64,000 nucleotides of DNA. It comes from Candidatus Iainarchaeum sp. Lineage in GTDB: Archaea > Iainarchaeota > Iainarchaeia > Iainarchaeales > 1-14-0-10-31-34. The position numbers were made by a program, and so were the translations under genes. Shown piece by piece: positions 61,623 to 64,000 of the stretch. Each line of letters starts with the position of its first letter. The first letter of the stretch is position 1. The stretch is from assembly GCA_017609625.1 (NCBI GenBank), contig JAFCDN010000010.1:9153-73152 (forward strand), written 5' to 3'. Under the pieces are notes generated by a model, which searched no databases, was not told the origin of the DNA, and saw only the letters and a program-made list of their open reading frames with translations.

Positions 61623-64000
61623 TTATTTGTATCTAAGGAAAGCCGCCATTCCGCCGAACCCTTTTAGAAACTGTTCTCCTTCGCTGGTTTCTGTTGAAAT
61701 TATTTTAACTTCTGCGCCGCTGTTTTTTGCTTTTTCTTCCATGAATTCAGCAAACTCTAAATCCTCTAATTCTTCAATTTTTGTTGAACTGCATTTGCTG
61801 CATTTCAGTTTAGGCTTTTCTTTTTTTACAATTATTTCTTCTATGTTTCCGCAGGAAGTGCATTCAAATCTTATTGCAGTCCATTCAATTCCTTCTGAAA
61901 GCAAAATTGTTTCTGCTTTTCCAACCTCTAAAGCTTGCATTACTTCTGTTTCTCCATAAGTTACTAATCCCTCTTTTACTATTTCTTCCATAAATCTATT
62001 AAGCAAAGCTCTTTCTTTCATTAAAGCAGTGTCTTTCAGCAGCTGCTCTGATTTCTGAATCATTTCCCTTATTCCTGATTCATCAGTATAAGAAGTGTCT
62101 AAAGTCCCGATGATTTTTTCTTTTAGCCTGTAATCAAGTTCATCTTTTTCAAGAAATTTGTTTTTTGTTATTCCAGGGCCGCCAATTATTACTCCTTTTA
62201 ATTTCTCTCCATATTCTTTGAAGGTTGAATTAATTTTTTCGCTTGTTCTTTTGAAAAAATCCTGTGTTGCTTCTTCTCTTAATCTTTCAAATCTGTGTGC
62301 GCTGTTATGGACTATTAATCCATTTGCGATAAAATTCTGATTTGAAACACTAATGTCCACTAGTTTTGCTTTTTTATTTACTTTTTCTATTTTGTGGATT
62401 TTTACTGGAATTAAAGGGATTTGCATTATTTTTTCCAGTTTTTCTTTCAACTTTTTATCTTTTACATGTGAAACTATTGAATTTGCAAAAACACTTTTGC
62501 TCATTTTTCTTTCATCTCTGAAAAAATTGTTTACTTTAGGAAATAATTCAAGATTGTATCCTTGTTTTTCAATCATTTTTCTGATTTTTTTTCCTGAAAC
62601 AAACATTTGTCTTACATTGCTTCTAATTTGCTTTCGATTTTTAATTAGTTTTTCCAGCTTTTCTTGTTTTGTTTTCAGGCTAAAACCAATCAGTTTTGAA
62701 AATAATTTTAGTGATTCATTATCTGATATGTCCACTGTATGCCTTGGATTGTCTGAATAAAAATTTCTTCTGTTGTCATATTTATGAAGTGAAGAGATAA
62801 TTCCAAACCTTAGTAATGAAAGGTGAAGTTGTTCAGCCATTTTTTTGTTGTTGATTCCTAATCCAATTCCTCTTTTGTCTGTTGCATATCCTTCTGCATC
62901 ATAAAACCCTTTAATAAAAGCAGCTAGAACATCATTTTTTGATTTCAGTATTTTTAATGGTATTTCGCTGTCTCTTGCTTTTTTTATTTCAGGAAAGTTT
63001 TTTTCAATGAATTTAACAATTGGCTTTCCATAAATTCTTATTTGATGATAACCTTTATTTTCTCTGAATTTTATTACATTATTTGCATTGAAAAAATTAG
63101 AGGTTTTGTTTTTATAGTATTCTGTAAGTTCTTTGCTTTGTTCAGAAAAACTTATTCTTTCTTTTTCAAAACTTCCGTCGCCAGCAAAATAGCCAATTAT
63201 TTTAGCCAGATCTTTTGTTAATTTTTTTGGCATAAATAATTCAGAATTAGCCTTTGTTTTAGTTTTGATAAAATTTTCAAAATTAATATTTAATTCTCTG
63301 CATAGTTTCTTAAGCAAATTTTTTCTTACATTTCTTTTTCCTAATTCAATTACTGAAACCCCTGTTTTGGTTATCCCTAATTTTTTTCCCAGTTTTTTCT
63401 GTGAAAACCCTGCTTTTTTTCTTGCATCAATCAAAGTATTTTTTCCTTTCTTTGTAATATTGTATGAATTAAAGCAGTCAAATGATTCAATGGTTTGTAT
63501 TTTTCCTTTAATTTCCAGTTTTTCAGGCATTAATAATTGGTCTCCGACTTTTAGTTCTTCAGCAGCTTTTTCTTCTATTTCTTCTTCTGCAGTAAAAAAC
63601 AAATGGTCTTTTGAAGAAACAATTTCTGTTCTTGGATTTTTTGTAATTATTTTATAAAAGCTTTTTTTTGTTTCCCATTTATCTTTTATGTCTGAATCAT
63701 CAAAAGAATAATCTTCAAAGTTTATGCTTTTTACTTTAAGAGGGTTGTGTGTTTCTTTGATTGGAATAATTGAACCGTCATTTAACTGTATTAATGTTTC
63801 TGGATGCAGGCATTGCCCTCCTGCACGCGTTTTCCCTGCAACATTGGAAGTAAAATGCCCTACAATTTCATAGCTTTTTCCTTTCAATAATGCAACTGTT
63901 GCTTCTCTTTTATCCAGCACAATTAAGGCATAAATTTCTTTTGTTTCCTGCATTTCATTTAATGGATCTAAATGAAAAGTTGAATCACACCAGTATAATT
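61623..64000 (-). CDS. prf1: Peptide chain release factor aRF1, 5'-truncated by the window edge and interrupted by an intein at the GGQ motif
   Basis: The frame stays open upstream of the annotated Met to the window end (...YYWCDSTFHLDPLNEMQETKEIYALIVLD). The exteins join as ...KTRAGGQ|SAHRFERLREE, the eRF1 GGQ signature. Domain 3 carries a mini Zn-ribbon CTSCG...CSKCS. Confidence 0.8.
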   Translation of the reverse strand, partial: LYWCDSTFHLDPLNEMQETKEIYALIVLDKREATVALLKGKSYEIVGHFTSNVAGKTRAGGQCLHPETLIQLNDGSIIPIKETHNPLKVKSINFEDYSFDDSDIKDKWETKKSFYKIITKNPRTEIVSSKDHLFFTAEEEIEEKAAEELKVGDQLLMPEKLEIKGKIQTIESFDCFNSYNITKKGKNTLIDARKKAGFSQKKLGKKLGITKTGVSVIELGKRNVRKNLLKKLCRELNINFENFIKTKTKANSELFMPKKLTKDLAKIIGYFAGDGSFEKERISFSEQSKELTEYYKNKTSNFFNANNVIKFRENKGYHQIRIYGKPIVKFIEKNFPEIKKARDSEIPLKILKSKNDVLAAFIKGFYDAEGYATDKRGIGLGINNKKMAEQLHLSLLRFGIISSLHKYDNRRNFYSDNPRHTVDISDNESLKLFSKLIGFSLKTKQEKLEKLIKNRKQIRSNVRQMFVSGKKIRKMIEKQGYNLELFPKVNNFFRDERKMSKSVFANSIVSHVKDKKLKEKLEKIMQIPLIPVKIHKIEKVNKKAKLVDISVSNQNFIANGLIVHNSAHRFERLREEATQDFFKRTSEKINSTFKEYGEKLKGVIIGGPGITKNKFLEKDELDYRLKEKIIGTLDTSYTDESGIREMIQKSEQLLKDTALMKERALLNRFMEEIVKEGLVTYGETEVMQALEVGKAETILLSEGIEWTAIRFECTSCGNIEEIIVKKEKPKLKCSKCSSTKIEELEDLEFAEFMEEKAKNSGAEVKIISTETSEGEQFLKGFGGMAAFLRYK
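62304..63812 (-). mobile_element. Intein (503 aa) with a LAGLIDADG homing endonuclease domain and an internal HTH
   Basis: Block A CLHPETLIQLNDGSII, block B SSKDHLFFT, LAGLIDADG motifs IIGYFAGDGSF and LAAFIKGFYDAEGYA, terminal LIVHN|S, and HTH GFSQKKLGKKLGITKTGVSVIELG. Confidence 0.8.

Follow-up and report, generated by a model that had tools for sequence, protein, structure and literature searches.

The aRF1 gene at the edge of this stretch of DNA raises the question of what kind of element can occupy the catalytic GGQ motif of a release factor, and whether such an element is still mobile. The window analysed here is the whole 64,000-nucleotide (nt) stretch from Candidatus Iainarchaeum sp. 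(assembly GCA_017609625.1, contig JAFCDN010000010.1), and the gene for the archaeal release factor aRF1 sits at its high-coordinate edge on the minus strand. Judged by its sequence, the insert in this gene is a canonical class-1 intein with a LAGLIDADG homing endonuclease, placed in frame between Gln and Ser of GGQS. From the sequence comparisons and a structural model, it is very likely that the element is a genuine, splicing-competent intein, and, as a rough estimate, reasonably probable that its endonuclease is still active in homing.

The intein and its host gene

The insert is exactly 503 amino acids (aa) long, runs from CLHPETLIQL to FIANGLIVHN and lies between ...KTRAGGQ and SAHRFERLR..., i.e. 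inside GGQ/S, where the slash marks the insertion point. A first-pass annotation of this stretch had placed a 503-aa intein in the GGQ motif of aRF1 with the junction RAGGQ/SAHRFERLR, and this was correct to the residue. The host gene could be identified with confidence from its visible part. The open frame extends from the stop codon (61623-61625) to the window edge and codes for the final 791 residues of aRF1 (61623..63998, minus strand), with the first complete codon at 63998 and a partial codon at 63999-64000. Because the frame runs off the edge, the gene is truncated and the NIKS domain lies outside the view, as the first-pass annotation had also noted. The ATG at 63953, at which a mechanical list of open reading frames (ORFs) starts a 776-aa ORF, is internal to the gene, and the upstream residues LYWCDSTFHLDPLNE extend the aRF1 alignment. 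The visible product matched five Pfam families (eRF1_2, eRF1_3, LAGLIDADG_3, Intein_splicing and HTH_3), all above their gathering cut-offs and far beyond chance expectation, with E = 8.8e-33 for eRF1_2 and E = 4.8e-23 for eRF1_3. When the extein was spliced in silico, it aligned to the NCBIfam aRF-1 equivalog TIGR03676 with 339 bits (cut-off 234.7), without a break from profile position 112 to 402 of 403, whereas the unspliced protein aligned in two stretches. Domains M and C are present, GGQ closes the N-extein, and splicing restores GGQS. The C-extein is 81-83% identical to those of two intein-free aRF1 proteins, P0121 and P0122. The features of the locus are as follows.

61623..62303, minus strand: C-extein including the stop codon (61626..62303 coding), 226 codons starting with SAHRFERLRE; rest of domain M and domain C
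62304..63812, minus strand: whole intein, 503 aa, from Cys1 to His502-Asn503, followed by Ser+1
62304..62417, minus strand: C-terminal splicing strands, intein residues 466-503
62304..62318, minus strand: block G, LIVHN, with Ser+1 next
62319..62363, minus strand: block F, LVDISVSNQNFIANG, with D486, in the C-terminal splicing strands
62418..62678, minus strand: conserved helical region, residues ~379-465, between the endonuclease domain and the C-terminal splicing strands
62679..63224, minus strand: LAGLIDADG (DOD) endonuclease domain, residues ~197-378, matched by LAGLIDADG_3 in two stretches
62886..62927, minus strand: LAGLIDADG motif 2, LAAFIKGFYDAEGY, ...FYDAEGY, with acidic residue E307
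63168..63209, minus strand: LAGLIDADG motif 1, LAKIIGYFAGDGSF, ...YFAGDGS, with acidic residue D212
63255..63455, minus strand: XRE/Cro-C1-type helix-turn-helix (HTH), residues ~120-186, between the N-terminal splicing lobe and the endonuclease domain
63456..63812, minus strand: N-terminal splicing (Hint) lobe, intein residues 1-119, beta strands in the model
63594..63626, minus strand: block B, EIVSSKDHLFF, with S67 and H70, in the N-terminal lobe
63783..63812, minus strand: block A, CLHPETLIQL, with Cys1, in the N-terminal lobe
63813..63998, minus strand: N-extein fragment, 62 codons; end of domain N and start of domain M, ending ...VAGKTRAGGQ

The residues that define a class-1 intein were all found: Cys1, block B with S67-K-D-H70, the Asp of block F, the C-terminal His-Asn and Ser+1, the last of which was found in every family member examined. 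The blocks A and B, the two LAGLIDADG motifs, the terminal HN with a +1 Ser and the HTH reported in the first-pass annotation were thus recovered, and the family models exceeded their cut-offs: Intein_splicing (E = 1.5e-20, 74 bits; cut-off 35.8), LAGLIDADG_3 (E = 1.5e-22, 80 bits, in two stretches), HTH_3 (E = 3.8e-11, 43.3 bits; cut-off 23), and the NCBIfam models TIGR01445 intein_Nterm (25.7 bits; cut-off 24.5) and TIGR01443 intein_Cterm (22.6 bits; cut-off 15.6). In an alignment of 81 sequences that are 43-55% identical to the window intein, 28 positions were invariant. They include the splicing residues C1, S67, H70, D486, H502 and N503 as well as the endonuclease residues G207, D212, G213, G302, D305, A306 and G308, and E307 was conserved in at least 90% of the sequences. 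No further inteins were seen in ten window ORFs that were scanned, including the six longest besides the aRF1 gene.

The insert also aligned to solved inteins. An AlphaFold2 model built on the 81-sequence alignment had a mean pLDDT (predicted local distance difference test) of 95.5 and a pTM (predicted template modelling score) of 0.93, and in this model the N- and C-terminal segments together form the predicted Hint fold. The top fold matches were endonuclease-bearing inteins, namely TliVMA (7qss), PI-PfuI (1dq3), PI-TkoII (2cw7) and PI-SceI, with E = 2.8e-22 and a template modelling (TM) score of 0.77 over the target for 7qss, and free-standing LAGLIDADG enzymes such as I-DmoI ranked after the inteins (Foldseek). 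The closest solved chain by sequence was PI-PfuI (E = 1.6e-14). PI-PfuI, the P. furiosus RIR1 intein, and TliVMA/PhoVMA (7qss, 7qst) likewise have a Hint domain with an inserted two-motif LAGLIDADG endonuclease, but their hosts are different (ribonucleotide reductase and V-ATPase) and their sequence identity to the aRF1 intein is just 12-19%. PI-SceI, the yeast VMA1 intein and the paradigm of an intein that splices and homes, resembles the aRF1 intein in combining a LAGLIDADG core with an accessory DNA-recognition region (fold match E ~1e-11). However, its extra DNA-binding region is another, non-HTH structure within its splicing domain, and the superposition is poor, with a root-mean-square deviation of ~25 A and a TM score of ~0.42. 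The HTH of the aRF1 intein is a modest structural peculiarity. It consists of five helices in the model (121-134, 138-145, 149-157, 164-173 and 178-185), the only sequence matches of residues ~115-184 among solved chains were stand-alone XRE proteins (HipB and C.BclI), and no solved intein showed an XRE HTH at this position at the sequence level. The LAGLIDADG-derived transcription factor WhiA (3hyi, 8dy9), which was among the fold matches, also combines a LAGLIDADG fold with an HTH. WhiA, however, is a free-standing protein whose catalytic acidic residues have been lost and whose HTH follows the LAGLIDADG domain. The aRF1 element has kept these acidic residues, carries its HTH ahead of the endonuclease domain and is embedded as a whole in an intein.

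These features suggest how the gene could yield a working release factor. Translation would produce a precursor of about 910 aa, by analogy with the full-length gene of the close relative L006 described below. The GGQ loop has to reach the peptidyl-transferase centre, and therefore a precursor with a 503-aa domain at the tip of this loop is expected to be inactive. The steps of class-1 splicing follow established intein chemistry: Cys1 would carry out an N-S acyl shift at the Gln(-1)-Cys1 bond, Ser+1 would attack the resulting thioester (transesterification), Asn503 would cyclise with the help of His502 and release the intein, and an O-N shift would give ...RAGGQ-SAHRF..., i.e. mature aRF1 with an intact GGQS loop. 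Archaea normally have no class-I release factor besides aRF1, so that splicing would have to be efficient. Once excised, the intein probably acts as a DNA endonuclease with a specific target, the GGQ-coding sequence of aRF1 alleles that lack the intein, and repair of the cut from an intein-bearing copy would then spread the element (homing). Selection on the motif keeps the GGQ-coding DNA nearly constant, and such a site is in line with the rule that homing endonucleases choose the least mutable DNA in essential genes. DNA recognition is probably extended by the XRE-type HTH through additional contacts. The helical region at residues 379-465, with the invariant residues R401 and G407 and a conserved motif similar to FPKVNNFFRDERKMSK, may be a second or further DNA-contact module.

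Empty sites and distribution of the intein family

Intein-free alleles were found among the closest relatives of the host gene. When the spliced extein was used as a query, the nearest proteins were P0121 (83% identical) and P0122 (81%), both intein-free aRF1s of 406-407 aa, and the next tier, 55-65% identical and mostly titled Diapherotrites, Iainarchaeum or Micrarchaeota, was intein-free as well. The loci L001-L004 share the gene order of the window (aRF1, TruD, glycosyltransferase 4, LPG_synthase_TM, a 205-aa protein and an S-layer protein). In the empty alleles of L001, L003 and L004, RAGGQ/S is unbroken and the DNA reads ...GGAGGNCAA/AGT..., which equals the predicted ligation product; the empty site of L001 reads ...CGTGCTGGAGGCCAA/AGTGCACTTCGTTTT..., with GTTGCAGGAAAACAACGTGCTGGAGGCCAA/AGTGCACTTCGTTTTGAAAGATTAAGAGAA at the insertion point. 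Close syntenic homologues therefore lack the insert exactly at GGQ/S, which answers the empty-site comparison proposed in the first-pass annotation.

The intein itself is present in other members of the same clade. In L006 (metagenome-assembled genome (MAG) Dive96_bin10.390), which holds a full-length gene, the intein is 81% and the extein 83% identical to those of the window, and for L005 the identity is 83% over the last 208 residues of the intein and 81% for the C-extein. Both genes extend upstream into the NIKS domain and contain the NIKS motif (SSNIKSPQTR in L005, SANIKSPQTR in L006). In this clade of five genomes, in which all pairwise extein identities are 81-84%, the intein is found in the window, L005 and L006 and is missing from P0121 and P0122. 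A run of N within the intein divides the aRF1 gene of L005 (L005:526-3122) into two gene calls, of which P0134 is the 3' half, and P0134 was therefore rejected as a truncated or decayed intein gene.

Beyond this clade the family is large. The intein alone as a query gave 174 matches, and the best 120 of them, each representing a cluster at 90% identity, were all aRF1 proteins of ~870 aa with eRF1_1/2/3, Intein_splicing and LAGLIDADG_3, and in most cases HTH_3 too. The position of the insert was identical in 120/120, as GGQ/C...HN/S (all split on 'GGQC' and 'HNS'), although the +2 residue may be Ser and the RF motif may read RY. The source names of these 120 were Woesearchaeota, Nanoarchaeota, Pacearchaeota and archaeon GW2011_AR20. 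Among GTDB species, each scanned through one genome, at least 89 carry an intein at GGQ/S, and the titles of these genomes also include Aenigmatarchaeota, Diapherotrites, Iainarchaeum, Micrarchaeota, Nanohaloarchaea and Candidatus Forterrea multitransposorum (complete genome CP045477.1). The carriers are thus mostly titled as DPANN lineages. The suggestion in the first-pass annotation that this might be a new intein allele or insertion site did not hold, since an intein sits at the same place in no fewer than 120 protein clusters and no fewer than 89 species-representative genomes. In these unnamed public aRF1 inteins (P0001-P0120, L006-L085, GW2011_AR20 and CP045477.1), the host protein, the insertion point and the domain order, i.e. 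splicing lobe, HTH, LAGLIDADG, helical region and splicing strands, are identical to those of the window intein, which is 43-56% identical to the family over its full length and 81-83% identical to L006 and L005. The window copy is part of a small clade, and the extein of this clade is most similar to the intein-free aRF1s titled Micrarchaeota and Diapherotrites. Most carriers are titled Woesearchaeota, Nanoarchaeota, Pacearchaeota or Aenigmatarchaeota, and their exteins share only 38-46% identity with that of the window.

Three size classes of the intein occur at the same site: ~500 aa, ~430 aa, and mini-inteins of 130-135 aa. The ~430-aa forms are without residues 111-167 (HTH), and the mini-inteins are without residues 107-470, which comprise the HTH, the endonuclease domain and the helical region. 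Some inteins at GGQ/S have outlying lengths (L067, 572 aa; L070 from Asbonarchaeaceae, 522 aa; L046, 486 aa) and are 28-37% identical to that of the window; these may be divergent sub-lineages or carriers of other inserted modules. Six records titled 'uncultured Methanosarcinales archaeon' (L017, L033, L042, L044, L045 and L083) were considered as a non-DPANN host and rejected. In five of the six the exteins are 60-77% identical to Woesearchaeota-titled ones, with G+C contents of 28-38%, and L045 is without an intact junction. The titles were distrusted because of this extein identity, and the records are probably mislabelled DPANN MAGs, as far as their sequences indicate. No relative was found when viral contigs were scanned for the intein as possible vehicles of its transfer.

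Selection, mobility and alternative explanations

Selection on the intein was estimated as the ratio of nonsynonymous to synonymous substitution rates (dN/dS) by the method of Nei and Gojobori between the window and L006. The ratio was 0.18 for the intein, 0.15 for its endonuclease domain, 0.25 for the HTH and 0.14 for the extein. Purifying selection thus acts on the whole intein at about the strength estimated for its essential host. For the best 120 proteins, the similarity to the intein of the window was not related to the similarity to its extein (r = 0.003), and in 32 of 43 full-size relatives the intein was nearer to that of the window than the extein was. When all 903 pairs of full-size carriers were compared, the identities of intein and extein were moderately correlated (Pearson 0.50). 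Among the outliers were the pairs L031 and L033, with exteins 56% and inteins 88% identical, and L016 and L028, with exteins 59% and inteins 78% identical. Both pairs are candidates for recent horizontal transfer of the intein between divergent DPANN hosts. The partial decoupling of intein similarity from host similarity indicates, at the level of sequence identities, mobility of the element, and the decoupling, the outlying pairs and the coexistence of full-size, mini and empty alleles together form the signature of a homing cycle, in which vertical inheritance is combined with horizontal transfer. Base composition was considered as a sign of foreign origin (the intein has a G+C content of 27.4% and 0.19 at third codon positions, compared with 34-36% and 0.23-0.26 for the exteins) and was left unused, because the gap is not large enough and amino-acid content confounds it too much.

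Several points weigh against reading the element as a splicing-competent intein that is still homing. The intactness of the window precursor upstream of the edge, where the gene is cut, is deduced by analogy with L005 and L006. The consensus Thr of block B is replaced by Ser, a known tolerated variant that is invariant within the family. The closest intein relative outside its own clade is only ~55% identical, so that no recent donor was found for the window lineage. The near-equal divergence from L006 (intein 81%, extein 83%) would fit vertical co-inheritance at least as well as ongoing homing, and the purifying selection seen on the endonuclease domain might be due to some role besides homing. 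In one alternative, the intein would splice but no longer home, being fixed and vertically inherited in the window lineage, with the HTH and LAGLIDADG module retained for a benefit to the host, e.g. as a WhiA-like DNA-binding regulator, or as fold support for splicing. The near-equal divergence from L006, the positive correlation of intein and extein identities across the family, the presence of WhiA, a transcription factor built of LAGLIDADG and HTH domains, among the fold matches, and the XRE HTH as a typical repressor module would all agree with such a fixed element. Nevertheless, we consider it unlikely, since D212, E307 and the neighbouring glycines are invariant or nearly so while domesticated relatives such as WhiA have lost them, since presence and absence of the intein are polymorphic among exteins of 81-84% identity, and since clear transfer outliers together with mini-inteins and empty sites coexist, as an ongoing homing cycle predicts.

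The intein might alternatively act after translation as a switch that controls, through redox, temperature or another signal, how much active aRF1 is available and with it the termination of translation as a whole. The location within the catalytic loop, which is expected to make the precursor inactive, and the retention of the element across many DPANN lineages speak for such conditional splicing, as do those members with Cys at position -4 (KCGGQ/C), which could form a disulfide with Cys1; disulfides that involve Cys1 occur in known redox-trapped inteins. However, the window copy has Ala at -4, target choice by a homing endonuclease fully explains an insertion at the most conserved site, and close relatives manage without the intein, which is therefore dispensable, so that conditional splicing appears quite improbable. 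We would give as little credence to a broader version, in which the rate of splicing would set the termination capacity of the cell as a global switch in DPANN archaea and the excised HTH-endonuclease module would perhaps have been co-opted for DNA binding or regulation; the persistence of the element under purifying selection across DPANN lineages is compatible with this and does not require it. Finally, as the view is limited to 64 kb of the genome and the gene is cut at the window edge, the locus could be a pseudogene, a decaying copy or a dispensable paralogue, with the working release factor encoded elsewhere. This is extremely improbable in view of the 791 open codons, the extein dN/dS of 0.14, the syntenic slot, which is the same as that of the intact aRF1 gene in relatives, and the intact intein-bearing genes with a NIKS motif in L005 and L006. 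The preferred explanation is that of a class-1 intein that splices and probably still homes.

The Cys at -4 is a feature of a subset of hosts (GKTKCGGQ/C in P0046, P0050, P0052, P0072, P0075 and L019), and in those hosts a disulfide between Cys(-4) and Cys1 could, as a speculation, make splicing redox-sensitive.

Context and neighbouring observations

Judged from sequence comparison, the aRF1 intein is nothing out of the ordinary as an element, being a PI-PfuI/VMA-type LAGLIDADG intein; its host site is unusual, and it is abundant in public assemblies. Full-text searches of the literature yielded no report of an intein in aRF1 or eRF1. No such intein is mentioned in the main text of Novikova et al. 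2016 (PMC4760082), which states that core transcription and translation components hold few inteins and lists inteins in archaeal aIF2/IF-2. This is consistent with the remark in the first-pass annotation that aRF1 is not a classical intein host. The aIF2/IF-2 inteins are alike in that they lie in an essential translation factor, and the NCBIfam model PRK14845 (intein-containing IF-2) partly matches the endonuclease region of the aRF1 intein. They differ in their sites, which are P-loop GTPase motifs, while the aRF1 intein lies in the peptidyl-tRNA-hydrolysis motif GGQ of a non-NTPase protein. The host range of inteins thus includes a non-NTPase core translation factor, and within it a universal motif.

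The aRF1 intein does not change the understanding of intein mechanism, and its interest lies in intein biology and in the annotation of DPANN genomes. The automatic product name from JGI, 'peptide subunit release factor 1 (eRF1)/intein/homing endonuclease', is already attached to some of these proteins, so that automatic annotation recognises the allele in part, and NCBI mostly names them 'helix-turn-helix domain-containing protein' or 'LAGLIDADG family homing endonuclease'. Because of this naming, and because of splits such as that caused by the run of N in L005, aRF1 may look missing, odd or fragmented in surveys of DPANN MAGs. With full-length, HTH-less, mini and empty alleles at one site and at least one clear recent transfer (L031/L033), the family lends itself, as a compact natural system, to work on the homing cycle and on gene flow between uncultivated DPANN archaea. 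Endonuclease engineering could potentially draw on the fusion of an XRE HTH to a LAGLIDADG enzyme.

Two observations concern the host protein and its genomic neighbourhood. Domain C contains a zinc-ribbon-like CxxC...CxxC insertion (CTSCGNIEEIIVKKEKPKLKCSKCSS; 61773..61868, minus strand, residues 711-742 of the 791-aa fragment), which matched Zn_ribbon_8 with E = 2.5e-4, under the cut-off of that family. This insertion is common to the nearest exteins (titled Diapherotrites or Micrarchaeota) and is apparently absent in the shorter Woesearchaeota-type exteins, which aligned over 245 vs 288 columns. In L004 (GCA_964608675.1), in which aRF1 is intein-free, a 1312-aa PEP-synthase/PPDK gene (phosphoenolpyruvate synthase/pyruvate phosphate dikinase; L004:190-4128) carries its own intein (Intein_splicing and LAGLIDADG_3). 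It lies three genes upstream of aRF1, and a window counterpart would fall just past position 64000. The PEP-synthase/PPDK gene is a second intein locus in the clade, and the presence of its intein is independent of that of the aRF1 intein.

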